Part shown: piece by piece, positions 20,838 through 45,419 of the stretch | How positions within the stretch are numbered: the stretch's first letter is position 1 | Layout of the letters: every line of letters starts with the position of its first letter | Source of the DNA: Ferruginibacter sp. | GTDB lineage: Bacteria; Bacteroidota; Bacteroidia; Chitinophagales; Chitinophagaceae | NCBI GenBank assembly: GCA_049840995.1 | Contig: JASGIP010000002.1 | DNA: 64,000 nucleotides | Direction: 5' to 3' (one strand) | Translations under genes and position numbers: made by a program | Notes under the pieces: generated by a model | Told to the model about the DNA's origin: nothing | Databases searched by the model: none | Seen by the model: only the letters and a program-made list of their open reading frames with translations

Positions 20838-20855
20838 ATATTAATACCAGGTATA

Positions 20856-22943: not shown

Positions 22944-23035
22944 AGCATGAAGCGAAGTTGCTTATACACTAAAAAAATGCATACCGCAAACAATCGTGTT
23001 TTTGGTATGCATTGTATTAAATGTGAGATCCGTTT

Positions 23036-29582: not shown

Positions 29583-29773
29583 ACAATTAATTTTTCGGTT
29601 GATAAGGAATGACTGTTGCAGTGCTAAAATAGATTTTTACAAAAGGCAGGTTGCGTGACAATGACCATTGCACTGCCTGTTTTTATCAACTGCATGGTTT
29701 TAACAATAATTGCAGGACTGGTTTTATAAATTTTGCCTGCTACATAGGGTAATATTATTTATATTGTGTTGGT

Positions 29774-31654
29774 ATGCGCTTTTTAAACCAAACTCTTATG
29801 AAGTGTTGCCTTTTTGTACTGTGTATATTAACCAGTTACATCAGCCAGGCACAGCCCGGCAGCCTGCAGGAACTTATTGCCAGGGCCAAAACAGAAAAAG
29901 ATACCACCCAGGTAAATACATTGATAGATATTGCTGCCACTTACAGCTACAATGGGGCGCATGACAGTTCGGATTATTATACCCAACAGATACTGGAAAA
30001 ATCCACACAGCTCAATTACCCAAAGGGTATTTGTATGGCCTATAATGCCTGGGCAACGAGTTATATGGTACAGGGCAACTACGATAAATCGCTGGCTGAA
30101 TATTTTAAAGCCCTTGACATTGCGGAAAAGAACGGGCTGGAACAGGCTGAGATCATTATGACGATGAATATTGCAACGGTATATACTTTCCAGGAAGAAT
30201 TCAATAATGCCATTCCTCTTTTGAAAAAAGTGTACAACTATGTTTTTAATAAAAAACACAATATCATGCGCTCTGCAGGTGTAGCCACCAATATTGGTGT
30301 TTGTTTTCAGCACCTGGGCCGGATGGATTCTGCAAGGGCTTATTTTGATCGTGGCCTTGAACTGGAAGCTGCAATTGATACTGCCGGCTTTACAGAAACC
30401 AAGTGGGCGGAGTACGAATTGCTGAAAGGAAGTTCTCTGCCTAAAACAGCAGATTTTTATGTTGGTATTGGTAATCCCCGAAAAGCACTGGACCTGATAC
30501 TTCCTTTTTGGAACGACATAAAAAAAGGCGATGATAAGGAGGGGCAGTTGTCTGTTTTAACAGTATTGGGTAAATCGTACCTGGCCATTGATAAATACGA
30601 CAGCGTGATCTATTACAGCAATATTGGCCTGGGGCTTAATATGGCTGAACAGATCCCAGAGTCGGTAAAGGATATTTATTTCAACATTGCTTCGGCGTAT
30701 AATAAGACCGGGCATTTTAAAGAAGCTTTTGAAAGCCAGCTGCGTTTTCAGCAACTGAATGATTCTATTTACAACAAAGAAAAGTTCAGGTCCATTAAGA
30801 ATATGCAGGTGAAGTATGAAACGGAGAAGAAAGAACAACAGATACTTTCATTGAATAAAGAAAAAAAAGACCAGTTTATCATTATAGGAATCTCGATCGC
30901 TGCTTTTTTAATTGCGCTGGTGCTTTTGCTTTTTGTACTCCGTTCTAAAAGGTTTCAGAAAGAATTATTCCGCAACGAAAAGCTGTTGCAGAATAATGAG
31001 CTGGAGCGAAAGATGACCGAGCTGGAACAAACCGCCCTGCGGGCGCAGATGAACCCGCATTTTATTTTTAACTGCCTCAATTCTGTGCAGCGTTTTGTTA
31101 TTAAAGGAGATATTGAAGGAGTGAATACTTACCTCGCCACTTTTGCAGGATTGATACGACAGACGCTGGAAAATTCCGGAAAGAAATGGATCGTGCTTAA
31201 AGATGAGATACAATACCTGCAATCTTATTTAGGAGTGGAGCAAATGCGTGGAAATACTATTTTTCAATACCAGGTTACTGTTGATCCGGCGCTGGATACC
31301 AGTATGGTACTGGTACCGGGCATGATCATTCAGCCCTTTGTGGAAAATGCTATTAATCATGGCATGTCCGGCAAAGCAGCAGGGGCGGGCAGGATCATCC
31401 TGGATTTTACAAAGACAGATAAACTTGTATGCAGTATCACTGATAATGGTAATGGTATTAAAAATTCCGGTGGTCTTGCAAATGCTGCACACCAATCGTT
31501 GGGCAATGATATTACCAAGAAAAGAATTGCAGCGTATAACGCTTTGGAGCAGGATGCTATTGAACTGGATATTACAGATCTTTCAGAAAAGGATGCTGCA
31601 ACTACCGGCACCATGGTCCGTATCAGTTTTCCGTTGAAAATAAATGAAGCATGA
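29774..31654 (+). CDS. TPR-containing LytS/YehU-type sensor histidine kinase
   Basis: Signal peptide, TPR repeats, one TM, ALRAQMNPHFIFNCLN, QPFVENAINHG, DNGNG. Confidence 0.92.
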   Translation: MRFLNQTLMKCCLFVLCILTSYISQAQPGSLQELIARAKTEKDTTQVNTLIDIAATYSYNGAHDSSDYYTQQILEKSTQLNYPKGICMAYNAWATSYMVQGNYDKSLAEYFKALDIAEKNGLEQAEIIMTMNIATVYTFQEEFNNAIPLLKKVYNYVFNKKHNIMRSAGVATNIGVCFQHLGRMDSARAYFDRGLELEAAIDTAGFTETKWAEYELLKGSSLPKTADFYVGIGNPRKALDLILPFWNDIKKGDDKEGQLSVLTVLGKSYLAIDKYDSVIYYSNIGLGLNMAEQIPESVKDIYFNIASAYNKTGHFKEAFESQLRFQQLNDSIYNKEKFRSIKNMQVKYETEKKEQQILSLNKEKKDQFIIIGISIAAFLIALVLLLFVLRSKRFQKELFRNEKLLQNNELERKMTELEQTALRAQMNPHFIFNCLNSVQRFVIKGDIEGVNTYLATFAGLIRQTLENSGKKWIVLKDEIQYLQSYLGVEQMRGNTIFQYQVTVDPALDTSMVLVPGMIIQPFVENAINHGMSGKAAGAGRIILDFTKTDKLVCSITDNGNGIKNSGGLANAAHQSLGNDITKKRIAAYNALEQDAIELDITDLSEKDAATTGTMVRISFPLKINEA

Positions 31655-32406
31655 AAATTACCGCACTAATAATTGATGATGATGCCGACAGCAGGATGAT
31701 ACTGCGTGCCTTTATGGAGCAATACTGTCCGCAGGTAGCTATTGCCGCTGAAGCTGCATCGGTGGCTGAAGGATTTGAAAAGATCACGGAACTGCAACCC
31801 GACCTGCTGTTGCTGGATATTGAGATGAAGGACGGTACGGGTTTTGACCTGCTTCGTATGATGCCGCAGAAAAAATTTGAAGTGATCTTTATTACGGCTT
31901 ATGATACTTATGCAGTGGAAGCTTTTAAATATACCGCTATCGGCTACCTGCTGAAACCTGTACTGGTTGCAGACCTGGTAACTGCTGTGCAGGCTGCTTT
32001 GGAAAGGATCAGGAAAAATATTTTTGAATCGCAATGGATGGCGCTTTCGCATAACCTGGAGAGTAAGGAAAGGTATGACCGCAAGCTTGCTATTGCAACT
32101 TCGGCAGGATATGTGTTTGTGAATGTAAAGGAGATATCGTGGTGCGAATCGCAGGCCAACTATACGGCATTTCATTTTTTATCCAGCAAAAAGATCGTTT
32201 CGTCGCGTAACCTGGGTTTTTATGAAGAGTTGTTACCGGTTGAAAAATTTTGCCGTATTCATCACTCCAGCCTGGTGAATGTTGATTATATCGAAAAATT
32301 TAACCGGCGTACCAATGGTGGCTCGGTGATCATGATGGATGGTACTGAGCTGGATGTTTCTCAACGGAGGAAGGAAGAGTTTTTGCAGTATTTTTTGTCG
32401 AGATAG
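31651..32406 (+). CDS. LytTR family response regulator
   Basis: Receiver (IIDDD, LLLLDIEM, KP) plus LytTR RIHHSSLVN and VSQRRK; 4-nt overlap with the kinase. Confidence 0.93.
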   Translation: MKITALIIDDDADSRMILRAFMEQYCPQVAIAAEAASVAEGFEKITELQPDLLLLDIEMKDGTGFDLLRMMPQKKFEVIFITAYDTYAVEAFKYTAIGYLLKPVLVADLVTAVQAALERIRKNIFESQWMALSHNLESKERYDRKLAIATSAGYVFVNVKEISWCESQANYTAFHFLSSKKIVSSRNLGFYEELLPVEKFCRIHHSSLVNVDYIEKFNRRTNGGSVIMMDGTELDVSQRRKEEFLQYFLSR

Positions 32407-32431
32407 TTTTAGGATGGCGGCGAAAGGAGCG

Positions 32432-32866
32432 TTATTTAATTTTTTTTATTGTTTCGTCCAGGTAGCTTGAGACATAGGCGTTTCTTAATTTGCAAGAACG
32501 GGAATAGTTATCTGTAACTTTCACCTCCCAGGTTGAATCGATATTCATTTTCTGAAAATCTTCTTTCACCTGCAACAGATATGGAAGGTATTCTTTCCTG
32601 TTAAATTCATTGATATACCTGATAGCAGATTCTTTGGTCAGCAGATCGTTGTTAGCCGCGTTTAAAAATGTTTTTACCAGTTGATCACTTTCTTTAATTC
32701 CCTTTACTTTTTTTACAAATAAAAGGTTGTCGTAAGAGTCATCCTTGTCTCCCTCAAATACATAAGTGTAACTTCCTTTAAAATACAAGTCTATATATTG
32801 CCCAAAGACAAAGTAGCCGATAATCAGCAGGATGAAACATACGATGCCGCCTTTCAAATATTTCAT
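32432..32866 (-). CDS. Hypothetical protein with N-terminal membrane anchor
   Basis: 144-aa ORF, hydrophobic N-terminus, AT-rich; no family recognised. Confidence 0.55.
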   Translation of the reverse strand: MKYLKGGIVCFILLIIGYFVFGQYIDLYFKGSYTYVFEGDKDDSYDNLLFVKKVKGIKESDQLVKTFLNAANNDLLTKESAIRYINEFNRKEYLPYLLQVKEDFQKMNIDSTWEVKVTDNYSRSCKLRNAYVSSYLDETIKKIK

Positions 32867-32970
32867 AGTTTTATTTATAGCGTGTTTTTAGGGAAATGCT
32901 ATGTAAATTTATCCTATTTTTCTTTCCTTAACGGCTTCGATACAGGTATGAGGCTTTATAAAATCTTTCA

Positions 32971-33426
32971 ATGACCACTTTTACAATTATAAAAAAAGGA
33001 AACAGGTACGATATTGTTAAAGATGGCGTGCAAATTGTTTACGGCATCAGGACAGGTGGCTTTTCTACTGAAAAGATCAGTTTTTATTTTATGGATGCTA
33101 CTGAAGCCGGTACTTATTTTGAAAAGCGGCGATTTATTTTAAAAAGATCGCTTTATCTAATGCTGCCTGGTAGCGCCGAAAGGGTGGAGATCAGCAGTAA
33201 ATTTGCTGCTTTCTTCTTTACCTATAATGACCGGCTTTATGAGTTGCGGTACGGATTTTTCAGTTTCAAAGGATTTTTTATCAACGATGAGAAAGTCGGT
33301 ACTTTAGAGACCCTTAAATCAGGTGTGGCACGATACAGCAAGCAAATCAACTTCGACATTGATTCAGAAGACCTGCTTTTTTTGATCTATTGCTATATAG
33401 GGGAGCATGAGTTTGGTGTGAATTGA
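32971..33426 (+). CDS. Hypothetical protein
   Basis: 151-aa ORF filling the gap between repeats; beta-rich; no family recognised. Confidence 0.5.
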   Translation: MTTFTIIKKGNRYDIVKDGVQIVYGIRTGGFSTEKISFYFMDATEAGTYFEKRRFILKRSLYLMLPGSAERVEISSKFAAFFFTYNDRLYELRYGFFSFKGFFINDEKVGTLETLKSGVARYSKQINFDIDSEDLLFLIYCYIGEHEFGVN

Positions 33427-33458
33427 TATTTTGGCTTAGCGAAAGTGCAAGGGGGGCA

Positions 33459-33646
33459 TACACCGTTTGCCATACTTCGACAAAGCTCAGTACCAAGACG
33501 GCGGCGAAGGGTTTAAGTCACCTGCGGTGCCTTATGTTAGAACGCGGATCTTTATGATGGTGATGATCTGTTATGATCTATCTGTGTAGATCTTATTGAT
33601 CTGTGTTCCGTTTTGTATCGCCGAAGGCGAAAGCTAAGACGGCGGC
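33459..33646 (+). repeat. Composite R2 long + R1 + R2 half
   Basis: R2 long 33459-33508; R1 from about 33517 with CACC-TGC-GGTG and TCGCC-GAA-GGCGA hairpins; AAGACGGCGGC tail. Confidence 0.85.
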
Positions 33647-33652
33647 CGGTTT

Positions 33653-34099
33653 TTAAAAACCATCTTTCACCAGTTCCCAGAATTCATCCAGCGCCATGAT
33701 ACGGGGTTTAAGAAAACTGATGATGCCCGGCCAGTCTGATTGGTTGAAGATATTTACCTGCTGCAGTTGCTGCGATATACTGCTAATGGTTTGATGACCG
33801 GTTACTGCCGCTTCATCCCACTGCCAGCTAAAGCCGGTGGTATTTTCCAACAATGTTTTGAGCGACAAGAACTGTGTATAATAATGCGCTCTTTCCTCTG
33901 GGTTGGCATGTGTTATTTCAATGGCAACAATTGCTTTTGTGTTATCGGCATCCATCCTGAACCGGATATTTTTGATGCCTGTTTTATAATTGATCCAGTT
34001 AACCGGCAATCCAGATGTACCGGGTACGGGTTTCATATATTGCCCGAAGCTGGTCCAGAATTGGGTTTTTAATTTTGATGCCTGTTCTTTGGAGTACAT
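33653..34099 (-). CDS. DUF4268 family protein
   Basis: MYSKEQA...FWTSFG, WINYKTGIK, FLKPRIMALDEFW pattern. Confidence 0.8.
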   Translation of the reverse strand: MYSKEQASKLKTQFWTSFGQYMKPVPGTSGLPVNWINYKTGIKNIRFRMDADNTKAIVAIEITHANPEERAHYYTQFLSLKTLLENTTGFSWQWDEAAVTGHQTISSISQQLQQVNIFNQSDWPGIISFLKPRIMALDEFWELVKDGF

Positions 34100-34121
34100 G
34101 GGTGTAAGATAGGGAAATCGG

Positions 34122-34268
34122 GTTAAGTCACCTGCGGTGCCTTGTATTGGAACGCGGATTTTTATGATGGTGATGATGTGTTATGATCTATCGGTGTACA
34201 GCATAATGATCTTATTGATCTGTGTTCCGTTTTTTATCGCCGAAGGCGAAAAGCCAAGACGGCGGCGA
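34122..34268 (+). repeat. Composite R1 + R2 half
   Basis: Near-identical to about 33513-33646. Confidence 0.85.
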
Positions 34269-34289
34269 AGGGCGAGTGCCTTTATCAGT

Positions 34290-34784
34290 TTAAGGTGTTC
34301 GATTATACTTAGGGCTATACGTATTTATTATCAATGTCGTTGGTCTGGCAAGTGGTCCGTAAAGTTGTTGTGCAGCGTGAAATTCCATCGTGTCTACATA
34401 GCTTAAGCTGTTGGATGGAAGCGTTCGTAACTCCTTTTGTGCACCTGGTTGGCACAAAATGCCGTCTACAACAATTAAAATATTTGCACCGTTGTCTACT
34501 GAATGGAGAAAGTGCTTCAGCAATGCGTACCTTTCTTTTTGTAACGTTGTTTCTACTTTCTTTGTTTTAACAACAATAACAGTGGTGTCTTTGCCGCTAT
34601 AATAAAATTGGGGTGCTTTTCCGGGAAGATACTTGTTGTATGAAAATATTTCAGACGAGTCCAGTTTTTCTAATTGCTCTTTCGGCTGTCGTATATCATC
34701 TATAAAAATTGCTTCACGCCGATCATGCCTCGAACAAGAAGCGAGCAATAAAAAAAGAAGATTGATAAGAATAAGCTGTCTCAT
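34290..34784 (-). CDS. Hypothetical lipoprotein (cassette-array gene)
   Basis: MRQLILINLLFLLLASC lipobox if started at 34784 (the track's 34826 start overlaps the upstream gene). Confidence 0.6.
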   Translation of the reverse strand: MRQLILINLLFLLLASCSRHDRREAIFIDDIRQPKEQLEKLDSSEIFSYNKYLPGKAPQFYYSGKDTTVIVVKTKKVETTLQKERYALLKHFLHSVDNGANILIVVDGILCQPGAQKELRTLPSNSLSYVDTMEFHAAQQLYGPLARPTTLIINTYSPKYNRTP

Positions 34785-34808
34785 TGGCGATACTAATGTT
34801 GTAAGAAG
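34783..34808 (-). other. Truncated attC-like half site
   Basis: ATTGGCGATACTAATGTTGTAAG, near-identical to 35366-35388. Confidence 0.6.
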
Positions 34809-34810
34809 GT

Positions 34811-35284
34811 TCAAACGCCGAACCATTTTTTTCTTTTATAGATTAACCCTTTCCTTTTTTTGTCATACACAAAGTAAATTGTCAAACCGCCTTCATTACC
34901 CATACTAATATTGTTGTTCTCGTATGTTGCAGAAAATGGGATTACTCCGCAAGAAAATTCCCCTTTCCTGAAGTCGAAAGGGGTAATGCCGACGATAATT
35001 GTGCTGCCATTATTTTCATTGATCGCTCTTATATATTGACTGTCTGTTTCCAAATATCTTATGTCAAAGCTAAGGATCTTTTTCGGCCAACTGTCGCCAA
35101 TAAAGTGGTCATCTCTAACATAAACGACTTTAGACTTAGTAGAATCCAAAGATTTGCAATATTCTTTTAAGGAAAACAAATAAACGTTATTAAGATTATT
35201 TAAACCGTCGGTATCTAAAACTGTCTGTCCAATAGAGACATTTAAATTAAATGCTAAAAAAAGTAAGAAGAATGTGATTTTCAT
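34811..35284 (-). CDS. Exported hypothetical protein (cassette-array gene)
   Basis: Signal peptide; AT-rich; framed by GTTGTAAG (34798) and GCTTACA (35315). Confidence 0.6.
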   Translation of the reverse strand: MKITFFLLFLAFNLNVSIGQTVLDTDGLNNLNNVYLFSLKEYCKSLDSTKSKVVYVRDDHFIGDSWPKKILSFDIRYLETDSQYIRAINENNGSTIIVGITPFDFRKGEFSCGVIPFSATYENNNISMGNEGGLTIYFVYDKKRKGLIYKRKKWFGV

Positions 35285-35312
35285 TTTTAAATGATATGGT
35301 GTTGATTAAAAC

Positions 35313-35391
35313 TTGCTTACAGTAGGCATTGCCGCAGCAGATTGCTTCAATGTCTTGCCCCTCTTATTGGCAATACCAATGTTGTAAGCAA
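35313..35391 (-). other. attC-like recombination site (most complete copy)
   Basis: TTGCTTACA(35313-21)/TGTAAGCAA(35383-91) outer arms and GGCATTGCC/GGCAATACC inner arms. Confidence 0.65.
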
Positions 35392-35392
35392 T

Positions 35393-36025
35393 TTATCTGA
35401 TCACGGTTCCTTTATTTACTTTGCTGATGTTTATAATATTTCCTGTAGTAGCGTTTATTTCAATGACTTCAAAGTCTCCCATGTCTTTGCCGGTAGCATT
35501 TAAAACAACGGTCAAGGTATGCGAAGCTGTATAAATATACTGTTTTGATTTTTCGTCATAAGAAAGGATTGGAATAGATACCTTGTAACTGTTAGGCTTA
35601 CTATTTGATTGTACGATCGCCGAAGCTGAGTCAACAGAAATAAATTCGGAAGGCTTGTTTTCAACGATGAATTTTGGAATGAATTCAAAATTTAAACTGT
35701 CAATTAATTGGAAGTCTTTATCAACTATTAACCAAAGCCCCCCTCTGACCCCTTCTATTTTGGGATAATCAAAATGATACAAAAAGTTCAATGTCACGAA
35801 CGACTTTGGAAGTCGTTTTTTTTGTAAAAATCTCCACGTCCGTTGTTTTCCTTTCCTGCCTGCATAACTGTAATAAGAACCTCCGGAAACACTAAAATAT
35901 TGAAATAATCTGTCCCCAATTTGCGATCTTAAAATGCTGTCTGCAATCACGACTGCTTTCTTTGTCCTTTGAGCATAAGTAGTAAAGCAAAATAATAAGA
36001 GGCCAGGTAAAATAAATTTTCTCAT
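35393..36025 (-). CDS. Exported hypothetical protein (cassette-array gene)
   Basis: MRKFILPGLLLFCFTTYA signal peptide at 36025; C-terminal IEINATTGNII PepSY-like motif. Confidence 0.55.
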   Translation of the reverse strand: MRKFILPGLLLFCFTTYAQRTKKAVVIADSILRSQIGDRLFQYFSVSGGSYYSYAGRKGKQRTWRFLQKKRLPKSFVTLNFLYHFDYPKIEGVRGGLWLIVDKDFQLIDSLNFEFIPKFIVENKPSEFISVDSASAIVQSNSKPNSYKVSIPILSYDEKSKQYIYTASHTLTVVLNATGKDMGDFEVIEINATTGNIINISKVNKGTVIR

Positions 36026-36094
36026 AATGTTCAAATGATGCAATTACTGGAGGATTTACACAAATTGCGAATGCAATGCCAGGCACAGTTATTT

Positions 36095-36550
36095 TTACCA
36101 ACCGGGACCAAGTTTTTCTATTGGTTCGGGTTCAATTACTCTCATATCATTTAGCAACATTGGGTCTTCGCCTTTCTTGATCCTTTTATGCATGTCCAAT
36201 AAAGTTGTCAACAGTAATTCAATCCCTTCTTTTTTATTGTCATCCTCGATCCTTAGTTTGGTCAAAGCATGTTGTGCCGCTTGCCAGAAGTAGGCACGAT
36301 TATCAGGAGAAAAAGACCTTAGGTCAAAGTTGAACATTATGTTTTCCTCTTTTCTAATAAACCCACCATACCCATTGTACTCATCTCCGATTTCTTCACG
36401 ATAAACAAATCTCTCCAGGTATTCATAGAAAGTTTGCGCTCCGTTAATTTCTTTTAGTTCGTTTGTGATTAGTTCTAACATATATGCCATGCCTGCCCAT
36501 CGTCTTGCAAAGCCTCTGCCGTCTTCAAGTGTCCAAAATGCTGATGCCAT
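36095..36550 (-). CDS. Cytoplasmic hypothetical protein (cassette-array gene)
   Basis: 151-aa ORF, no signal peptide, framed by degenerate cores GCCAGGCAC (36078) and GAGCCTAAA (36563). Confidence 0.6.
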   Translation of the reverse strand: MASAFWTLEDGRGFARRWAGMAYMLELITNELKEINGAQTFYEYLERFVYREEIGDEYNGYGGFIRKEENIMFNFDLRSFSPDNRAYFWQAAQHALTKLRIEDDNKKEGIELLLTTLLDMHKRIKKGEDPMLLNDMRVIEPEPIEKLGPGW

Positions 36551-36562
36551 TATCTTATAATT

Positions 36563-36834
36563 GAGCCTAAAGTTGAGGACCCGCTGCTGTGCTGGTATTT
36601 TATAACGTCCAGCCCGGAACCACTACCTGCTTTTTTATAAAGTTAAATATTAACAACGAAAGTGGGGTTTTAAGGTTAAGTATATGAAGATGGCGGAGGA
36701 GAAATTGGCCGCATTACTTTTGATCTGGTAAAGTTTTAATGATGGTGGCATTCGCCGTTTGTCGAAGCCAAGACGGCGGCAAAAAGACCAGACGGCGGCG
36801 AATTCTCACTGAGGCAAAATCCCATGTTATGTGC
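36563..36834 (-). other. Long degenerate attC-like spacer interrupted by R2 repeats
   Basis: GAGCCTAAA at 36563, GCCCGGAACCACT internal motif, R2 at 36752-36802, intact GTTATGTGC at 36826. Confidence 0.5.
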
Positions 36835-37351
36835 CGGCAGTCGAATTGTTTTTTGAATAGTAGGCCGGTTTAAGTAATTCTATGATTTGGATATTTCTTA
36901 AACGATTTTCCTTGTCAGAATAAAATTTTGAGTCTTTATTTACTTTGAGCCATGCAGACTTAAACGATGATAAAAATTTTTCCCGATCTTGCTTGGCCAC
37001 AAAGAAATAAACAGTGTCCACTTTAAATAAATAAAAAATAGATTTCTTTTTCCTGCAATTAATAAGCGTAATATAATTTTTATTGTTATACCATTTTCCG
37101 CTATCAAAAAAACTACTGCCAAAGCAACCAGAGTGATATCTTCTAAATTTCATATTTGAGTCGAAGTAATAACTACCACTTAAAACATCTGCAAATACAA
37201 ACGAAAATTTTCCAATTGCATCTCGGGATAAAATTGAATCGCAAAACCTTGGCTGACTTAAAGATGAGTTAAAGGTGTCTTTTAAAGGATTAATTTGACA
37301 TTTGGCCAAAAAGGAAAGAAGAATGAATAATATGGTAGGTACACTTTTCAT
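36827..37351 (-). CDS. Exported hypothetical protein (cassette-array gene)
   Basis: MKSVPTILFILLSFLAKC start at 37351; the stop codon TAA lies inside the GCACATAAC core. Confidence 0.6.
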   Translation of the reverse strand: MKSVPTILFILLSFLAKCQINPLKDTFNSSLSQPRFCDSILSRDAIGKFSFVFADVLSGSYYFDSNMKFRRYHSGCFGSSFFDSGKWYNNKNYITLINCRKKKSIFYLFKVDTVYFFVAKQDREKFLSSFKSAWLKVNKDSKFYSDKENRLRNIQIIELLKPAYYSKNNSTAGT

Positions 37352-37374
37352 CTTAGAAAATGTTTCGAACGCTG

Positions 37375-37568
37375 GCACATAAAGTTAAACCATTGGCGAT
37401 GTGGCGGTATTCTATGTTCCGTGTGCCCGGTTCCGCTGCTGATTAAAGATACAAAAGCTGATTGTAATTCTGTTGCTTGGCGTTATTCATCTGCCGAAGC
37501 CGAATAGCGAACCAAAGTTGATGCTTACAACGTCAAGCACAAATTGCAGCAAACCTAATTTTGGTTGC
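37375..37568 (-). other. Long attC-like spacer
   Basis: GCACATAAA at 37375, GCCCGGTTCCGCTGCTG internal motif, ATTGCAGCAAACCTAAT-TTTGGTTGC at 37543-37568. Confidence 0.55.
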
Positions 37569-38169
37569 TGCTCTTCATTTTCAACAAAGTAACTTTCTTA
37601 ATGTATGTATCGTCAAATGTCTTTAGTACAACGTGATACCAGTTTTGTTCGGGTGTGTCAACTGTGAAGATTTCATTTTTCTTATGATTTCTAACAGCTT
37701 GTTCAAAATTTTTAACCATCATATTCTCTGTAAACCATTTCGTGTCACCTGTAAAATTACCATCCATATTATACTGCTGAACAAGGTCAAAAAAGCTTGT
37801 ACCAGTTTTAAATTTTGAAATTATTTCCTGCCTTAAGCTGTCAAGTTGCAGTTTGGAAAATTTGTCACCATTTAAATAAATATAGTTTACTCTAAATGAT
37901 AAAGTAGAGTCTATACTTAAAATTTTAAAAGCGATATTATCTATGTAAAAAGTAAAGCCAATTTTTTTGTTATAAAGGGGCATAAGAATTTCTGTCGTGT
38001 CATTACTTGATTCTATTGTAAAAAGTTTACTGCCTGTTTGGGGATTTTTTGATATAAATGCTTCTGCTTCAGAAACTGTTTTAATCTTTGAAATATCATT
38101 TCCTTTCGATTGTCCAAAAGTGAAAGAGTAAAATAAAAATAGTATTGTTGTAATAATAAGTCTTGTCAT
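37555..38169 (-). CDS. Exported PpiC/parvulin-type peptidyl-prolyl isomerase-like protein (cassette-array gene)
   Basis: Signal peptide; SFFDLVQQY..GDTKWF...MVKNFEQAV...WYHVV rotamase pattern. Confidence 0.7.
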   Translation of the reverse strand: MTRLIITTILFLFYSFTFGQSKGNDISKIKTVSEAEAFISKNPQTGSKLFTIESSNDTTEILMPLYNKKIGFTFYIDNIAFKILSIDSTLSFRVNYIYLNGDKFSKLQLDSLRQEIISKFKTGTSFFDLVQQYNMDGNFTGDTKWFTENMMVKNFEQAVRNHKKNEIFTVDTPEQNWYHVVLKTFDDTYIKKVTLLKMKSSNQN

Positions 38170-38479
38170 TTTATGTTGCTATAGGTTTTGTGTCAGAGTA
38201 TCAGCCAACACCAGGATTGCTGTTATTACACGCAATTCATCAAACCAAATATACGCTGGTAATCAACAAGCTAGTAGTATATATTTTAAATTGTTTATAG
38301 CAGCAATGGTATTTACGATTACTTACCAATGCTTAATTGTATAAAATCGTAATGGGGAAGCTTTAGCTTTATCAGGTGCGCCAAAGTAATCATTTTATTT
38401 ACAAAATAAAATACGGGAAACCCGCAATTTTGCGGCTTAAGCCAGCATCAGGCAGCCCTGCATTGAAGGTTGCGATGTG

Positions 38480-38528
38480 TACGCCGTTGGTCGTACTTTG
38501 ACGAGGCTCAGCACCCAGGCGGTGGCGA
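38480..38528 (+). repeat. R2 long copy (degenerate)
   Basis: TACGCCGTTGGTCGTACTTTGACGAGGCTCAGCACCCAGGCGGTGGCGA. Confidence 0.7.
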
Positions 38529-38560
38529 GGAATAATATTTTCCCTATGTTTTCTATGTGC

Positions 38561-38773
38561 CTATGTGGGTTTAATAGTTTGCTCCGTTGCTGCAGGTGCT
38601 TTTTCCTTTTGCAGTTTCAGCAACCGTAACGGTATCCACACCGTTTTCTTTTCGTTCTTTTTATTCAATCCTTCGCAAAGCGCTTCGCCCTTTACTTCAT
38701 CTACCTGGATGATCTTTTTGTCATTTAATTTTTTAAATGCCACAGCATCGCCAACCTTGAATTTTCCTTCCAT
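38561..38773 (-). CDS. Small hypothetical protein (DUF2158/YodC-like)
   Basis: MEGKFKVGDAV...ALCEG pattern; start 38773 because the longer ORF is only read-through of a DNA repeat. Confidence 0.45.
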   Translation of the reverse strand: MEGKFKVGDAVAFKKLNDKKIIQVDEVKGEALCEGLNKKNEKKTVWIPLRLLKLQKEKAPAATEQTIKPT

Positions 38774-38811
38774 GTTTTTTTGATTACAATATAGTGAATT
38801 AAATGTTGCCG

Positions 38812-38940
38812 TTTGATGGTTCAGACCGCTCCCGCCTGGGGCGAGACAGGTTAGGGCCCCGACCGGGAGGAGATGGTTCAGGCCGCAGGAGCGTCCCGAC
38901 CCACGATGATGGTTCAGGCCGCAGGAGCGGTCCCGACCCA
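38812..38940. repeat. GC-rich REP-like repeat, three units
   Basis: GATGGTTCAG(A/G)CCGC at 38815, 38872, 38908; the last two continue AGGAGCG(G)TCCCGACCCA. Confidence 0.75.
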
Positions 38941-38941
38941 A

Positions 38942-40243
38942 TTACTGCTTTCCATCCAGCAGTACTTCGGCATTTACTGTGGCCAGTTTATTCACACCTT
39001 CTTTTGTAATGAATTTACAATGCTGCAGGGTAATGTTTTTAGCAAAGAAGATTCCGAAAGGATTGTCGGCGGTGATGTTTACATTCTCTAAAGAAATATT
39101 GGCAATGGCAGCTTCGGGCAGTCCCCAGATAAGGCCGGCACGCCTGCCGGCTTCGGCAGTGGCGGTAATGTTCTCAAATTTTATGTTGCTGTAAATGGGT
39201 GTTAAGTCGGTTACCGGTGCAGCTGGATAAGTCGATGCAATTTCGGGCGTAAGTTTTTGCAGGTTCCTGTATTGTTTATCGGGCGCCATATAAGTGGCAT
39301 ACATTAAAATGGGAATGCCCACGTTCGTCATGGTAAGATTGCGGTAGGTGAGGTTCTGCACCTGGCCGCCCCGGTCACGGTCGGATTTGATGCGGATGCC
39401 GCATTCGGTATTGGTAAAGCTGCAGTCTTCTATTAAAAAATTCGATACGCCTCCTTTGGTATAACTGCCAATAGATAAACCATGTCCGTAACCATATTTG
39501 CAGTGCATGATGTGTACATTAAAAGTGCCGCCGCCACAGGTAAAATTATCATCGCCGGTACTGATGTCGCAGTTCTTGATCAGGATATCTTTACCGGAAA
39601 CATCGCAGGCATCGGTATTGTGGCTGGGATTCACCGGATCGGTGGAGGCAGGCGCACGGACTATTACACCACTTACCGTAACATTGTTCGACCTGCTGAT
39701 GGCAATATGAAACATCGGTGAGTTCATCAAGGTTACATTCTCGATCAACAGTTTTTCACAATCCTTCAGCGAGATCATGCGGGGGCGTTTGGCATCTTTT
39801 TCTTTCGCGAAGGGCCACCAGGGCGATCCTTGCCCGTCGATGGTGCCTTTACCGGTAATGGCCACATCGTGCAGTTTGGTGCCGCTGATAAAATCGGTAC
39901 CCGTTGTGGTGCCACCGGGATATTTATCGATCGGTAATAATTTTAGCAGTGCACCGGAATCCAGTTGAAAATTGAGGTTGTTCACAAACTGCAAAGGGCC
40001 GCAGAGAAAAACGCCTGCAGGCACCACCACTTTTCCGCCACCGGCGGTATTGGCTGCATCAATTGCTTTTTGAATAGCACTGGTATTGTCTGTTTGTGCA
40101 TCGGCTGCTGCACCAAAATCTTTTATGTTGAATGTTTTATTGGGAATTACTGGGAGCGCCGGTGTTACCAATGCTGTCTGTGCCTGTAGTTGTTGTAATG
40201 CGAGGAAACTGATCATTGCGATAACGCTGCAACGTATTTTCAT
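38942..40243 (-). CDS. Glycoside hydrolase family 28 (polygalacturonase-like)
   Basis: Signal peptide; NTD, GDD, GHG and RIKS catalytic motifs. Confidence 0.92.
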   Translation of the reverse strand: MKIRCSVIAMISFLALQQLQAQTALVTPALPVIPNKTFNIKDFGAAADAQTDNTSAIQKAIDAANTAGGGKVVVPAGVFLCGPLQFVNNLNFQLDSGALLKLLPIDKYPGGTTTGTDFISGTKLHDVAITGKGTIDGQGSPWWPFAKEKDAKRPRMISLKDCEKLLIENVTLMNSPMFHIAISRSNNVTVSGVIVRAPASTDPVNPSHNTDACDVSGKDILIKNCDISTGDDNFTCGGGTFNVHIMHCKYGYGHGLSIGSYTKGGVSNFLIEDCSFTNTECGIRIKSDRDRGGQVQNLTYRNLTMTNVGIPILMYATYMAPDKQYRNLQKLTPEIASTYPAAPVTDLTPIYSNIKFENITATAEAGRRAGLIWGLPEAAIANISLENVNITADNPFGIFFAKNITLQHCKFITKEGVNKLATVNAEVLLDGKQ

Positions 40244-40344
40244 GCTGTTTGAATTTTAGCTGGTACAATGTAAACATTAATTGAAGGACTGACTTTGATT
40301 GGGTGCTAAAGTTTGTTAATGGGGAGTTATTGGAGATTGGAATA

Positions 40345-40526
40345 AGTCGCCTGCGGCGTCTTTTATGGGAACGCAGATTTTTATGATGGTGATGATATGT
40401 TATGATCTATCTGTGTAGATCATGATCATCTTAATGATCCGTGTTTCGTTATTTATCATCGATGATGATAGGAAATATGTCGTTTGTTGTACTTCGACGA
40501 AGCTCAGTGTCAAGACGGCGGCGGAG
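40345..40526 (+). repeat. Composite R1 + R2 long
   Basis: CGCC-TGC-GGCG; GAACGCAGATTTTTATGATGGTGATGAT; ATCATC-GAT-GATGAT hairpin; R2 long at 40476-40526. Confidence 0.8.
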
Positions 40527-40548
40527 GTTATGAAATCCATTTTGGAAT

Positions 40549-41058
40549 TTATTTTTTACCTTCTTCCCGGACGAAGTGCCCATTTTTATCAAAAAACTTT
40601 GCATCAATAACTTGGCCGCTGTCATTAAATAAAAGTGAGGACTTTATAATACCCAGTGAATCTTCCCAATAGTCTGCACCATAACTCACTTCTTTATCCA
40701 TTCTGAAATATCTATGCCCGTTTAAAGTTCCGGTAGTATCATAAAAATAATAAGCATTTCCCCCGGCCAATCCATTTTGTACGGGTATTTTCCTGTCTAA
40801 AATACCATCATTATAAAACCATAATTGCTCGCCTTGAAATTGCCCTTCCTGGTTAAGTCTATGTATTTCCTTGACCTCTCCATTTTCGTAAAACGAGAGT
40901 TCAATCCGCAATTTATCTGTACCTGCGTTGTTGATAATGACAGATTTTATTTTGCCATTTTCATAATACGTGATTTGTTTGGATGATCTGCCAGCGCAGC
41001 TGCAAAATATTAATGCGAGTACTAACACGAGAAGTACCGGATAATTTGAATGCTTCAT
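40549..41058 (-). CDS. Lipoprotein with MORN-variant (YwqK-like) repeats
   Basis: Lipobox FCSC; YYENGKIKS, FYENGEVKE, QGEQLWFYNDG; AT-rich. Confidence 0.65.
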   Translation of the reverse strand: MKHSNYPVLLVLVLALIFCSCAGRSSKQITYYENGKIKSVIINNAGTDKLRIELSFYENGEVKEIHRLNQEGQFQGEQLWFYNDGILDRKIPVQNGLAGGNAYYFYDTTGTLNGHRYFRMDKEVSYGADYWEDSLGIIKSSLLFNDSGQVIDAKFFDKNGHFVREEGKK

Positions 41059-41102
41059 ATTATATTGTTTTTATTGACTGGCCGCTGACGAAGATAGGTT
41101 AG

Positions 41103-41172
41103 ATTTTATTTTGAAGGGGGATTGTTGTGTGATAGAGGAATACGCCGTTTGTCGGAGCCAAGACGGCGGCGA
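41103..41172 (+). repeat. R2 short copy with a 5' extension shared with 43100-43169
   Basis: GATTTTATTTT...GGGGATTGTTGTG...GAGG..TACGCCGTTTGTC...CCAAGACGGCG. Confidence 0.8.
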
Positions 41173-41198
41173 GTGTTTAATAACAATCAACATAATCG

Positions 41199-41206
41199 TA
41201 CCTTTG
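41199..41206 (+). promoter_or_regulatory. Bacteroidota -7 promoter element for the Bcr/CflA gene
   Basis: TACCTTTG about 120 nt upstream of the start. Confidence 0.55.
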
Positions 41207-41327
41207 CCGTTTAACAGGAGTTATAGTTGAAACGGATGGATACTGCTTTTAATAGTCGATACATTTTTTCCTATTGAGATAATTGCCTGGAAATGATTTT
41301 TTTAAAACTGTTTAACTATTAATTTCT

Positions 41328-42551
41328 ATGGATGTTGTTCTCCCCTCTCCATCACCAGGTAAAAATTATGTACAACGCAGCAGGTGGCAAAACATCCTGC
41401 TGATCACCATCATTGGTTTACTCAATACGCTTACGCCGTTCTCTATTGATATGTACCTGCCCGCTTTTCCAAAAATTGCGCAGGAACTGCATACCGGTAT
41501 TGGTAATGTGGCATTATCCGTCTCTACTTATTTTTTGGGATTTGCCCTTGGGCAAATACTATATGGACCTTTACTCGATCGCTTTGGAAGAAAGCGGCCT
41601 CTCTACATCGGGCTGTTTTTTTATATGATCGCAACCATTGGTTGTACGCTTTGTAACACGATCGAAATTTTCTGGGTCGCCCGTTTTTTACAGGCACTCA
41701 GCGGTTGCGTGGCTTCTGTTGCCGCCATGGCAATGGTACTCGATTTTTTTCCACCGGAAAAAAGTGCCCGGATCATCTCTTTGCTGATATTGATACTGGG
41801 TATATCGCCACTGCTGGCGCCTACAGTGGGCAGCCTTATTATTGCAAGCTGGCACTGGCATCTTGTTTTTGTTACGCTGGCAATTTTTGCGTTGCTGATG
41901 TTCTTAGTGTCTTTTTTCCTGTTGCCGGAAGGGCAGGAGCCTGATCTTTCCGTTTCATTGATGCCCCGGCCGATCATCAATAGTTTTAGACAGATATTGA
42001 CTGACCGGCAATTTTATGTACATGCACTGGCAGGTACTTTTTCGTTTGCAGGCCTGTTTGTATACGTGGCAGGTTCACCGGCTATTTTTATGGATGAGTT
42101 CCAGATGTCGCCCAAGATCTATGGCGCCATATTCGCCGGGCTTTCAATAGGCTTTATCGGCAGCAGCCAGTTGAACCATTTTCTTACCCAACGTTTTACT
42201 GGAAAACAAATATTGCAAACGGTGTTGATCATCCAGTCTTTAACCGGGATCATTTTTTTTATTACTGTTTTTAGTGGATGGTATACTATGAGCTCAACGA
42301 TCTTTTTTATATTTATTGTATTGGCCTGCTCCGGCCTTACTTATCCCAATGCTGCTGCACTTGCCATGACGCCCTTTACTAAAAATGCGGGAACTGCTGC
42401 TGCTTTATTAGGCTTCATCCAGATCGGTATCGGCGGGCTTATTTCTGCAGGCGTGGGCATGCTGCATTTTAAGGGCAGCTTTTCTGTTGCATTGATCATG
42501 GCAGTATCGGCATCTATTGCGTTGCTGATCTTTTTAAAGGGGAAGAAGTGA
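41328..42551 (+). CDS. Bcr/CflA family multidrug efflux MFS transporter
   Basis: PFSIDMYLPAFP, GPLLDRFGRKRP, RFLQALSGC; 12 TM. Confidence 0.92.
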   Translation: MDVVLPSPSPGKNYVQRSRWQNILLITIIGLLNTLTPFSIDMYLPAFPKIAQELHTGIGNVALSVSTYFLGFALGQILYGPLLDRFGRKRPLYIGLFFYMIATIGCTLCNTIEIFWVARFLQALSGCVASVAAMAMVLDFFPPEKSARIISLLILILGISPLLAPTVGSLIIASWHWHLVFVTLAIFALLMFLVSFFLLPEGQEPDLSVSLMPRPIINSFRQILTDRQFYVHALAGTFSFAGLFVYVAGSPAIFMDEFQMSPKIYGAIFAGLSIGFIGSSQLNHFLTQRFTGKQILQTVLIIQSLTGIIFFITVFSGWYTMSSTIFFIFIVLACSGLTYPNAAALAMTPFTKNAGTAAALLGFIQIGIGGLISAGVGMLHFKGSFSVALIMAVSASIALLIFLKGKK

Positions 42552-42682
42552 GGCAATAGTTTGTTTTTGTGTGTTGTGTAAACGGGGCACTTCTATTATA
42601 ATTTGTTTTACACCCAATACATTGTTGAATAAATCCATGAAGCCTGGCAATACTTATATCAGCCAGGTTGCGTAAATAAAAA

Positions 42683-43099: not shown

Positions 43100-43169
43100 G
43101 ATTTTATTTTAACCGGGGATTGTTGTGCGATTGAGGATACGCCGTTTGTCAAAGCCAAGACGGCGACGG
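43100..43169 (+). repeat. R2 short copy with 5' extension
   Basis: Aligns to 41103-41172. Confidence 0.8.
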
Positions 43170-43516
43170 AAGCCAGCATATTCTGCCTGCCTTAACAGTA
43201 CTACTACGTACCAAAATCACGTAATACCCGAATTGCAGAAGTAAAAGATCAATTATATTTTTATCTGTCACCCCCAGATCTTTCAATATCCCCCGATTGA
43301 TCCATCGCCGCTGAGATTTAACTGCACTGAGAGGAACCCTTGTATTGATAGTATAACCTGAACCTGGCTATAACCGGGCTGTATACCTTTTTTTCTGCTA
43401 CAGGCTGGATACCCCTGCACCCGGGTTACACTACCTCTTCATTTCTACCTGGTCCAAAGTTTAAAACCGGAGTTTGCTGAAAATCCGACAAAGAGTAGGC
43501 ATAAAACAACCACATT

Positions 43517-44992
43517 ATGAGTAACAATCAAGCAGGGCGCCACGGTATAGTTCGTGGGCTCGATTCCGTTGCACGGTCATCGAGTTTTGAAGGCCGTTTT
43601 GGAAGAATGTTCCGCACCTTACCCGCCGCAACATGGCCAGAGGATGCATTAAAAAAACTGGCAGCTGCCATGAGCGCAGATGCAGAAGAAAGTCCAACCC
43701 CCGAAAATAAATCCGATGATGAAGAAAATTCGGGTATCAGTGCCGGGTACACGTATTTTGGTCAATTCATTGATCACGACATTACCTTTGACCCCAACAG
43801 TTCGTTGCAGAAAGATAATGATGTGAACGGCCTGGTTGATTTCCGTACGCCAAGGCTGGACCTGGATAATGTATATGGCAGGGGACCGGATGACCAACCC
43901 TATATGTATGATAATACCGGTATGAAATTTTTACTGGGTAGGCAACTTACCGGTGCCGAAGCATTTGCCCATAACGTAAAAGATCTGCAAAGGATCACAA
44001 CCGAGCCTAAGCGTGCCATCATCGGCGATCCACGAAACGATGAAAATGTGATTGTTTCGCAACTGCAGGGAGCGTTCCTGCGTTTTCACAATTACTTGGT
44101 GGAAACGATGCCCGGTAGTAGCTTTTCTGATGTACAAAGGGAAGTGCGTTTTCATTATCAATGGGCGGTGCTGCACGATTTTCTGCCAACGATCATTGGC
44201 CAGAAGATGGTGGATGATATACTCTCCGGCGGTTTAAAATTTTATAAACCACGCAAAGAGGCTTACATGCCGGTGGAATTTTCGGTGGCAGCATACCGGT
44301 TTGGGCACAGCATGGTGCGACCCATATACCGCCTTAGCCAAACCATTCCCCGCTTTGCTATTTTTTCAAATGACCCGGGCAGTAGCCTGACCGGTTTCCG
44401 GGAATTCCCTTCCAACTGGGCCATCGACTGGCGGTTGTTTTTCAACTTCGGTAATAACCCGAATCCACTTTCGCCGGAACGTATTCAACCGGCGTATAAG
44501 ATCGACACCTCGCTGGTGAATCCATTGGCCAACCTGCCTGCAAGTGTGGGAGGTAACATACCAAGCCTTCCATTCAGAAATTTATTGCGGGGGCTTCGTA
44601 TGGGATTGCCCTGCGGCCAGGATGTGGCCTGTAAAATGAATGTAACCCCGATACCGGACAAAAATTTAAAAGTGGGCAAGGCTACAGAAGGGGATACGGC
44701 AACAAATAAAAGTATTGTGGATATAGATCCATCATTCAAAGGAAAGGCACCATTGTGGTTCTATATTCTTGCAGAAGCGCAGCAGCAATTTAAAAAGAAT
44801 AATACGCCCATCAGGCTCGGCGAGGTTGGAGGAAGAATTGTGGGCGAAGTGCTGATCGGTTTATTACTGAATGACAGCCATTCGTATCTCAGCATGGCCC
44901 CCTGCTGGCAGCCCCGGCACGACCTGTTGCTCAATGGTAAATTCAGTATCGCCGCTTTAATTGCTGCCGCAGGCAAGAGCAGCAATGTCTGA
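43517..44992 (+). CDS. Bacterial heme peroxidase (animal peroxidase/cyclooxygenase superfamily)
   Basis: GYTYFGQFIDHD distal motif, GDPRNDEN, AAYRFGHS proximal His, LWFYILAEA. Confidence 0.88.
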   Translation: MSNNQAGRHGIVRGLDSVARSSSFEGRFGRMFRTLPAATWPEDALKKLAAAMSADAEESPTPENKSDDEENSGISAGYTYFGQFIDHDITFDPNSSLQKDNDVNGLVDFRTPRLDLDNVYGRGPDDQPYMYDNTGMKFLLGRQLTGAEAFAHNVKDLQRITTEPKRAIIGDPRNDENVIVSQLQGAFLRFHNYLVETMPGSSFSDVQREVRFHYQWAVLHDFLPTIIGQKMVDDILSGGLKFYKPRKEAYMPVEFSVAAYRFGHSMVRPIYRLSQTIPRFAIFSNDPGSSLTGFREFPSNWAIDWRLFFNFGNNPNPLSPERIQPAYKIDTSLVNPLANLPASVGGNIPSLPFRNLLRGLRMGLPCGQDVACKMNVTPIPDKNLKVGKATEGDTATNKSIVDIDPSFKGKAPLWFYILAEAQQQFKKNNTPIRLGEVGGRIVGEVLIGLLLNDSHSYLSMAPCWQPRHDLLLNGKFSIAALIAAAGKSSNV

Positions 44993-45248
44993 GACCTGCT
45001 CTGTAATGTAAAACATGCAGCATGCGATCCGTTCTTGTTTGGAATGGATCGTATGCTTATTTTTTATACATAATATCTTTTTGTTGGAGTTAGTCTGTGT
45101 AATGACTTTGTTGATCGAGTGTAGTAGTGTTGGTTGTAAAAAGCGTGTATTCTTAATAGTTATAAATAAAAGTATTTGTGGTAAGTTGGGTGGCAATGGA
45201 GGTTAGTGGTATATTAGTTTGATCTGCTACCGTTTTATGATGGTGGGG

Positions 45249-45386
45249 TACGCCGTTTATCATACTTCGACAACGCTCAGTACCAAGACGGCGGCGGAGA
45301 AAGTTTGATTCTTAACTATTTTATGATGGTGGAGTGCGCCGTTTGCCGTGCTTCGACAAGGCTCCGTACCAGGACGGCGACGGCGA
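45249..45386 (+). repeat. Two R2 long copies
   Basis: 45249-45298 and about 45335-45386, each with a CTTCGAC-n3-GCTC(A/C)G insert. Confidence 0.8.
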
Positions 45387-45390
45387 AAAA

Positions 45391-45419
45391 TAAAAAAGGA
45401 ACACCATCAATAGTGTTCC
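45391..45419 (-). terminator. tRNA-Cys terminator
   Basis: GGAACAC/GTGTTCC stem with a T6 run on the minus strand. Confidence 0.7.

Follow-up and report, generated by a model that had tools for sequence, protein, structure and literature searches.

We analysed a 64,000-nt stretch of DNA from Ferruginibacter sp. (assembly GCA_049840995.1, contig JASGIP010000002.1; hereafter the window), corresponding to C2:19588-83587 of a 5.8-Mb assembly of 10 contigs that is 98% complete. The segment at 34290-38335 is very probably a decayed, recombinase-less cassette array of an integron-like system that occurs commonly in Chitinophagaceae and also in other Bacteroidia. Read along the minus strand, it begins with an attI-like site and continues with six genes (g6 to g1) split by one full and several truncated copies of an attC-like element of approximately 208 nt. 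An original prediction, made from the sequence of the window alone, had proposed an integron-like array here, comparable to a cluster of attC sites lacking integron-integrases (CALIN), but had overlooked both the attI-like site at 38199-38335 and the fact that the spacers between the genes are copies or fragments of a single element.

The attC-like element and its arrays in relatives

A BLASTN comparison of 29700-42600 with 40 relatives gave no match to the coding region of any of g1-g6 and many matches to the spacers. The original prediction was to be abandoned if relatives had the same gene order and the spacer did not recur beside other genes, and neither was observed. Alignment showed that the spacer matches are repeats in same-genus genomes and belong to one family of approximately 170-210 nt with covarying terminal inverted repeats, present in 112 of the 121 genomes of the genus beside unrelated genes. 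The consensus of a 60-copy alignment opens with ..nGCnnnYAAC directly followed by AttGGGTTTGCnnnAAgnnnGGCTGGAC and closes with GCGGTTCCGGGCGGAC..AATTCCnnnnCnnCnGCAAGCCCTGnnC directly followed by GTTRnnnGCnA. The YAAC and GTTR anchors are near invariant, with the G of GTT kept in 59 of the 60 aligned copies (the window's own mutated copy being among the 60), and RNAalifold pairs YAAC with GTTR and adds an inner stem of 15 pairs. Over these 19 pairs, 95.3% of alignment cells are paired, compared with 75% in column shuffles and 31-47% when the pairing is slid along the alignment; double-change cells number 213 versus 76 and the covariation score is 0.48 versus 0.14, exceeded by none of 500 shuffles. 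Compensatory changes occur in 11 of the 15 inner-stem pairs. Because the stem sequence covaries freely, this pattern argues for selection on the base pairing itself, which is also the case in attC sites, and against a fixed protein-binding repeat. The elements show the attC architecture R″(..AAC)-L″...L′-R′(GTT..), conserved in structure over sequence.

Arrays in relatives have a regular layout, in which one element of 190-240 nt is followed by a single open reading frame (ORF) of 130-330 aa that fills the gap to the next. Searches with nhmmer and with a covariance model of the element (R1) placed the elements always downstream of a gene for a tyrosine recombinase of approximately 400 aa and on the strand of that gene. 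In genome G132 (loci L054 and L131-L135) all 110 elements of an array of approximately 103 kb (C1:2,785,738-2,889,023) lie on the plus strand behind one recombinase, and at 36 recombinase loci in other Chitinophagaceae, which comprise Ferruginibacter, Hanamia, Lacibacter, Ginsengibacter and the isolates Ilyomonas limi 17mud1-8 and Sediminibacterium sp. C3, 64 of 64 elements were downstream and co-directional. Two checks proposed with the original prediction, a genome-wide covariance-model survey of the spacers and a search for a tyrosine recombinase beside the largest array, have a counterpart in these results: R1 matched one element and two fragments in the window as well as long arrays in relatives, and a recombinase was present in relatives, as at the head of the 110-element array. 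The 103-kb array is comparable to the Vibrio cholerae superintegron; additional clusters of G132 lie near 1.975-1.995 Mb. Contig C1 of another relative, G117, carries three recombinase-headed arrays (L049, L050 and L051) with shared cassettes, the recombinase genes of two of them being approximately 94.6% identical; within L051, a 122+240-aa cassette and a 219-aa cassette each occur twice.

The ends of the cassettes are complementary across the ORF. The 7 or more variable nucleotides after the GTT of one element recur in reverse-complementary form before the AAC of the next, as in GTTAGCCGCT/AGCGGCTAAC and GTTATGGGCA/TGCCCATAAC. At least 6 contiguous complementary nucleotides were found at the ends of 81% of 67 cassettes, compared with 3% when the two ends of the same element were paired and 3.5% for random pairs; a C/A mismatch is usual at position 8 and pairing often resumes beyond it. 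As far as sequence can tell, these ends match the structure of integron cassettes, because with a crossover between the G and the first T of GTT the 3′ bases would move with the downstream ORF and pair with its R″. The combination by which an integron cassette is recognised, an ORF with its site and complementary ends of the kind expected from such a crossover, is found in the cassettes of relatives and, within the window, for g5 and g6. When a site was rebuilt from a cassette's own ends, its folding energy (DNA parameters) was -34.5 kcal/mol on the top strand and -36.2 kcal/mol on the bottom strand, compared with -27.8 and -28.9 kcal/mol for the site in its array context. The bottom strand was the more stable in 43 of 56 cases, the energies favouring it only modestly, and the wobble and mismatch positions are ambiguous as to strand choice, with one wobble and one mismatch on each.

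Signs of cassette movement were found at the same boundaries. Two G117 arrays have in common a cassette that is 98.8% identical and has different neighbours in each, with identity ending exactly after ...AAGCCCTGCCCGTT (that is, after ...CCCGTT). A cassette common to G009 and G117 (88% identity) starts at the GTT core and lies beside the attI-like site in G117 and beside an element in G009. A homolog of g3 (80% identical) on metagenome contig L129 forms a single-ORF cassette whose two flanking elements are full (156 and 192 bits) and whose neighbours are a glyoxalase gene and an unrelated gene. These findings bear on a possible role of the elements in RNA, where they would serve as terminators, stabilisers or RNase processing stems of a polycistronic transcript and the ORF-flanking ends would be processing stalks and not recombination scars. 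The covarying stem would form in RNA too, and the genes are co-oriented and closely spaced, but such a role would leave unexplained the linked recombinase and attI-like site, the cassettes shared between arrays and genomes with boundaries exactly at the GTT core, and the unrelated gene content between conserved elements, and we consider it highly unlikely. A scan of 30000-42000 against Rfam at E ≤ 1 returned no match, a result that is neutral for this alternative, and an RNA role and recombination could be compatible.

It is less likely again, and in our view extremely so, that the elements are dispersed intergenic repeats, akin to repetitive extragenic palindromes (REP), bacterial interspersed mosaic elements (BIME) or miniature inverted-repeat transposable elements (MITE), that accumulated between genes without a role in gene movement. 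The element has terminal inverted repeats, it resembles REP/BIME repeats in being a short structured repeat between genes, and two further families of REP-like appearance, one a repeat of 131 nt and the other a GCCGCCGTCTT hairpin with approximately 30 copies, cluster in the same region of the window. The attC-like elements differ from such repeats in their strand bias (the 110 of 110 and 64 of 64 counts given above), in the presence of one ORF per element, in their linkage to a recombinase and an attI-like site, and in a complementarity that spans each ORF and does not correspond to target-site duplications; the free covariation of the stem is likewise unlike that expected of a transposase-bound terminal repeat. 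Their distribution is confined to arrays: in the Ferruginibacter sp. genome itself, nhmmer found the family in two places only, the window and a cluster on contig C6, with each copy co-oriented with the genes.

The recombinase-headed arrays also share a candidate entry site. In approximately 25 of them the recombinase stop codon is immediately followed by a common sequence of approximately 110 nt (GGATTGTACTAATAACAATACAAAATGTATAAC..TTGATTTTCAA...TAGCGTCTTATATCATAAATTTAcGyGTTR), and the nucleotides after its GTT match the R″ of the first cassette; we infer that this attI-like site is where cassettes enter. At loci L095 and L096, two or three extra palindromic copies of ACAATACAAAATGTATAAC lie upstream of the attI-like core, an arrangement that recalls the accessory integrase-binding repeats of attI1. 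Among the diverse cargo of relatives are a BsuBI/PstI restriction-modification pair, a short-chain dehydrogenase, an arginase, a thioredoxin, a beta-lactamase-fold protein, a glyoxalase, a RelA/SpoT domain and numerous proteins without a known function. The 88 cassette proteins from relatives matched 71 Pfam families, the top 25 of which are of metabolic, restriction-modification and resistance types and include no immunity family.

Related arrays extend beyond the Chitinophagaceae. Of 401 Bacteroidia genomes sampled, 214 encode proteins similar to P0001, the recombinase of relative G017, at 35-55% identity, frequently at the end of a contig. Flavobacteriales metagenome-assembled genomes (MAGs), a Cyclobacteriaceae MAG and a further family have recombinase-headed, co-directional arrays of 122-145-nt elements with the same YAAC/GTTR cores and the same complementarity of cassette ends. 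A self-BLAST for repeats downstream of the distant recombinase homologs had returned almost nothing, which we attribute to sensitivity because the covariance model later found divergent elements there. The candidate locus L100 (Parabacteroides goldsteinii) proved not to be an array locus. The integron-like or CALIN-like interpretation put forward in the original prediction is therefore supported by the recurrence of the elements, by a linked recombinase in a genus where 112 of 121 genomes carry them, and by the complementary cassette ends.

The decayed array in the window

Within the window, R1 matched the full model at 37371-37572 (88 bits) and gave partial matches of approximately 21 bits each at 36596-36663 and 35311-35393. 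All features of the array lie on the minus strand and are described here in that direction. The attI-like site (38199..38335) is homologous to the sequence that follows the recombinase stop codon in relatives, aligning with the region downstream of the G017 recombinase; it ends in GGTGTTGGCTG just upstream of g6 and its GTT is intact. Its upstream neighbours are the terminator-like hairpin of an unrelated gene (38426-38412) and a REP-like repeat, with no recombinase remnant. A sequence in the site, TATATTTG, fits TAnnTTTG, which we take to be the Bacteroidetes -7 promoter motif, and the six genes may be co-transcribed from this promoter-like sequence; in a promoter and terminator consensus scan, counts were no higher than in shuffles.

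Element 1 (37371..37572), between g6 and g5, is the only near full-length copy (E = 1e-22, model positions 1-208) and is mutated at both ends, AAC to AAA in its 5′ anchor and CGTT to CTTT in its 3′ core. Element 2 (36551..36836; 20.8 bits, model positions 104-171) is disrupted: a proper R″ core and 5′ start (GGCACATAAC directly followed by ATGGGATTTTGCC) remain at about 36805-36835, a pair of the REP-like GCCGCCGTCTT repeats is inserted at 36740-36802, and the 3′ half at 36583-36665 again has CTTT for CGTT, with an R′ core mutated to CTTTAGGCTC (36563-36572). Between g4 and g3 lies a collapsed element (36026..36094), in which an AAATAAC core is followed by ..GCCTGGC ATTG and then by the 5′ leader of the g3 cassette. 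Alignment to the contig on which the g3 homolog follows a complete element ending in ...CCCTGAAC directly before GTTGTAGGCAATTTGTG identified ..GCCTGGC ATTG as the 3′ end of an element with a mutated GTT. We dropped an earlier reading of a composite element split by the insertion of g4 and g3, since the 3′ half upstream of g4 and the 5′ part downstream of g3 belong to two different decayed elements. Element 3 (35311..35393; 20.7 bits) is truncated, keeping its R″ core (TTGCTTACAAC), its L″ arm and a short interior, and is fused to an R′-like TGTAAGCAA with loss of GTT. The last copy is a 26-nt stub (34785..34810; CTTACAAC ATTAGTATCGCCA) that forms part of a 27-nt repeat 89% identical to 35362-35388 and whose inner-arm motif CCAATG supplies the ATG of g1. 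The conserved GTT has thus been lost at all four internal junctions of the window.

The six genes, called from the ORF list with the most plausible start codons, are minus-strand ORFs between 34290 and 38169, all co-oriented as had been predicted. The first, g6 (37555-38169), encodes an exported protein of 204 aa with a PPIC-type peptidyl-prolyl isomerase (PPIase) domain, the sole Pfam match among the six. It is followed by g5 (36827-37351; exported, 174 aa), framed by TTATGTGCC... and ...GGCACATAAC, by g4 (36095-36550; cytoplasmic, 151 aa), a member of a conserved family without a Pfam match, and by g3 (35393-36025, or with a start at 36043; exported, approximately 210 aa), which is PepSY-like according to the source name of one homolog. 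The array closes with g2 (34811-35284; exported, 157 aa, no family match) and g1 (34290-34784; lipoprotein-like, 164 aa), and is taken to end there because no element follows g1. Two further expectations of the original prediction held: G+C content is 35.4% for the stretch against 42% for the genome, and five of the six translations have a signal-peptide- or lipoprotein-like N-terminus, g4 being the exception. The description of the six as orphan genes held for g5, which had no homolog among 5.8 billion proteins, and failed for g3 and g4, which have homologs, and for g6 with its PPIase domain. We found 38 homologs of g3 and 243 of g4, the latter at 70-84% identity in Niastella, Polaribacter and Flavobacterium; such conservation across Chitinophagaceae and Flavobacteriaceae is unusually tight for a small accessory protein of unknown function. 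Scans of the six proteins against NCBIfam and PADLOC added nothing to the Pfam result, and tblastn of g1-g6 against the retrieved arrays and the rest of their own genome found none save a weak paralog of g6.

The cores cited in the original prediction as framing the genes could have been chance matches in AT-rich sequence, with the six genes an ordinary horizontally acquired islet. Those cores are short (7-9 nt), and when the framing complementarity of each gene was compared with 500 shuffles, the matches of g1-g4 fell within the shuffle range: the g4 pair (GCCAGGCAC/GAGCCTAAA) proved to be at chance level (95 of 500), and the g2 pair, not significant alone (148 of 500), nevertheless sits exactly at the R′ and R″ core positions of the family model. 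The pairs framing the other two genes were each reached by a single shuffle in 500. That of g5 (GTTATGTGC/GCACATAAA) belongs to an inverted repeat of 26 nt in which 20 of 26 positions match, and has the stop codon inside the core (GGCACATAAC), as claimed; that of g6 has GTTGGCTG upstream and CAACCAAA at the 3′ end. An islet with chance cores is already contradicted by the R1 match to the g6-g5 spacer at E = 1e-22 and by the two further fragments, and the homology of the attI-like site to those of relatives also tells against it, so that we regard it as barely credible. Other parts of the predicted pattern proved real, since the inner (L″) arm TTGCCAAT of the conserved element accounts for the shared ATTG..AAT motif and the fold proposed for 35313-35391 is recovered at 35311-35393 with 9-bp outer arms (z = -2.6). 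Taken as a whole, the original observation is partly confirmed, standing for the g5 and g6 pairs, the motif and the fold and falling for the g4 pair and full orphan status.

By its sequence, then, the window holds a cassette array that is decayed, not active, and probably frozen. The array is most likely immobile because GTT is lost at all four internal junctions and the genome has no P0001-type recombinase; with the recombinase gone and the elements degraded as well, the six genes are most likely fixed in place.

A second recombinase-less array of the same genome lies at C6:206,695-215,220 (locus L032, 8696-17221) and has six or seven elements, all on the plus strand, with one or two genes between them. 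Among the proteins encoded in it are a dioxygenase and a beta-propeller that bears a Por secretion tail; a KAP NTPase gene lies upstream and a SUKH gene just beyond. An attI-like copy is found in the middle of this array (C6:213,305-213,410), and complementarity of its cassette ends is poor, as in the window.

Two other repeat families occur near the window array, the 131-nt repeat and the hairpin-like unit (motif CAAGACGGCGGCGAA, approximately 30 copies genome-wide). They are located at 33464-33650, 34113-34270, 36740-36802, 38485-38531, 40332-40527 and 41130-41190, and also at about 19700-23900 and 43100-45400; both are REP-like in appearance and unrelated to the cassette element, although one repeat pair is the one inserted in the g5-g4 element. 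Outside the array, an exported MORN_2 protein (YwqK-type, antitoxin- or immunity-like) is encoded at 40549-41058 and flanked by REP-like repeats. Three irregularly spaced copies of a 22-nt unit (GATGGTTCAGGCCGCAGGAGCG) lie at 38815-38929, inside the long reading of ORF 38561-38941, whose true start is probably later, at MEGKFKVGD.... On the plus strand, 29774-32406 encodes an adjacent LytS-like histidine kinase and LytTR regulator, the kinase core giving many short paralog matches in relatives.

The recombinase and comparison with known systems

The original prediction had left open an IntI-like or unknown tyrosine recombinase encoded elsewhere. A tyrosine recombinase does head the arrays of relatives, but it is not IntI, and none of its type was found in the Ferruginibacter sp. 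assembly. None of the 121 genus genomes has an IntI above the TIGR02249 cut-off (265 bits), the best score in the window's own genome being 80 bits; the same search exposed recombinases of approximately 400 aa with split matches to the IntI model. One of these, P0001 (402 aa), has Phage_integrase and SAM-like N-terminal domains and approximately 120 further N-terminal residues without an assigned domain. It falls below the cut-offs for XerA (207 versus 220), IntI (183 versus 265), XerC and XerD, and among solved structures it matches archaeal XerA and VchIntIA (2a3v) about equally. Its alignment to VchIntIA skips IntI4 residues ~215-246, the IntI-specific segment. This insertion, an additional domain around patch III, defines integron integrases and is held essential for attC recognition, so that P0001, which is missing it, is by definition not an IntI. 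In the genome of the window, no P0001-type recombinase was detected at E ≤ 1e-40, the best matches to P0001 being Xer-like proteins at 32% identity.

These results also bear on whether the window is the remnant of a canonical integron, a CALIN whose elements are true attC sites of a bona fide IntI encoded elsewhere or recently lost. The R″/L″/L′/R′ layout with AAC and GTT cores, the complementary cassette ends, the stop codon in a core and the attI-like site would all fit such an origin. The IntI searches of the genome and the genus, the sub-threshold score of the array-linked recombinase and its lack of a counterpart of IntI4 ~215-246, a recombinase gene that is co-directional with the array and not divergent from it, and elements of approximately 208 nt, above the usual 57-141 nt, make it very unlikely. 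We therefore retain the reading of a decayed array of a distinct integron-like system. In every sequence-level respect tested the system appears to behave like an integron, though its recombinase is not IntI.

The resemblance to sedentary chromosomal integrons and CALINs is extensive. Arrays reach approximately 110 mostly single-ORF cassettes, each with a folded imperfect palindrome that has AAC/GTT outer cores and an inner stem; similarity between elements of one array is high, cargo is diverse and mostly unknown, cassette ends are complementary with the nucleotides 3′ of GTT belonging to the next cassette, a conserved attI-like site adjoins the recombinase gene, and recombinase-less clusters exist. 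A CALIN has at least 2 attC sites and no integrase nearby; the elements of the window, one full and between two and four partial, are attC-like, and the genome has no such recombinase. The differences from integrons are that the recombinase is Xer-like, with an extra N-terminal region of approximately 120 aa and no IntI-specific insertion; that it is co-directional with the cassettes, whereas intI is divergent and the promoter Pc lies in intI/attI; that the elements are approximately 208 nt long (122-145 nt in other orders), against 57-141 nt for attC; and that, of the GTTRRRY/RYYYAAC cores, only GTTR/YAAC is conserved. The pdif modules of Acinetobacter plasmids, whose 28-bp double-stranded XerC/XerD sites are used by housekeeping Xer proteins, likewise consist of separate gene modules that lie between inverted recombination sites and are moved by tyrosine recombinases of the Xer type, but have no dedicated recombinase, attI-like site, long folded element or long co-oriented arrays.

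A published system with the same architecture and from the same phylum, Bacteroidota, is that of the rAID-1 clusters (acquired interbacterial defence associated with a recombinase) of Bacteroidales (Ross et al. 2019, bioRxiv 10.1101/471110; 10.1101/2025.05.03.651265). As described there, a rAID-1 cluster has a XerD-like recombinase at its 5′ end with at least 44% identity to BF9343_RS08045, at least 2 co-directional downstream genes with GC ≤41%, repetitive intergenic sequences and orphan immunity cargo. The window has six co-directional genes, 35.4% GC and repeated elements. In those descriptions, rAID-1 is found in Bacteroidales, is defined by its orphan immunity genes and forms arrays of ">16 kb, up to 31 genes", whereas the present arrays occur in Chitinophagaceae (and in Flavobacteriales and Cytophagales), carry diverse cargo (restriction-modification, dehydrogenase, arginase, beta-lactamase, glyoxalase) and reach approximately 103 kb; term searches of the text of the rAID-1 papers turned up no reference to folding of an element or to complementary ends of cassettes. 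None of the six window proteins matched an immunity family in Pfam, NCBIfam or PADLOC, and a rAID-like reading of g1-g6 as immunity genes was dropped as unsupported in these databases.

In its intact form, as seen in relatives, the system comprises a Xer-like tyrosine recombinase of approximately 400 aa, a conserved attI-like site and a co-directional array of ORFs each paired with an attC-like element that has outer cores YAAC...GTTR and a covarying inner stem of approximately 15-19 bp. By analogy with integrons, cleavage by the recombinase would take place in the GTT core or beside it, the DNA probably being a folded single strand, so that the nucleotides 3′ of GTT would travel with the downstream ORF and complement those 5′ of the AAC behind it; circles of one ORF plus its element would be excised and then inserted at the attI-like site. 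In this genome the recombinase would have been lost, and the attI-like site now abuts the terminator of an unrelated gene. Several considerations weigh against this account of the window. Framing complementarity exceeds chance only for g5 and g6, and g1, which no element follows, is perhaps not a cassette. We infer from sequence patterns that cassettes are excised and integrated, at which point they cross over and which strand is used. A search for public sequencing runs of this stretch found none listed. The 10-contig, 98%-complete assembly leaves room for a recombinase in its unassembled part, and the linked recombinase of relatives is without the insertion held essential for attC recognition, so that the molecular mechanism may differ from that of integrons.

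Integrons are the textbook case of bacterial gene capture, and their integrase is defined by the one extra domain thought essential for handling folded attC sites. The IntegronFinder 2.0 paper lists for Bacteroidetes only In0 elements and one complete integron (Salinibacter ruber), and integrons are otherwise almost unreported there. A literature search, of incomplete coverage, found no description of the Chitinophagaceae arrays. We see an even chance that Bacteroidia have their own widespread integron-like capture platform, largely missed by integron finders, with a Xer-like recombinase devoid of the IntI domain, sites of 122-145 nt (Flavobacteriales, Cytophagales) or approximately 208 nt (Chitinophagaceae), a co-directional attI-like site and super-arrays exceeding 100 cassettes; in that case the rAID-1 clusters of the gut would be one specialised branch and the window a fossil with each crossover core knocked out. 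The interest of the finding rests on the form that the family takes in relatives and not on activity of the window copy, which illustrates a possible course of decay after recombinase loss, with GTT gone at four junctions, elements truncated and the genes remaining. In a phylum where integrons are reported to be almost absent, arrays of the size of Vibrio superintegrons and with the same cassette logic are tied to a recombinase without that domain. If the mechanism were confirmed, cassette capture would either have evolved more than once or predate IntI and extend beyond it, rAID-1 could be placed in a mechanistic framework, and soil and freshwater Bacteroidota would hold a very large unexplored pool of cassette genes.

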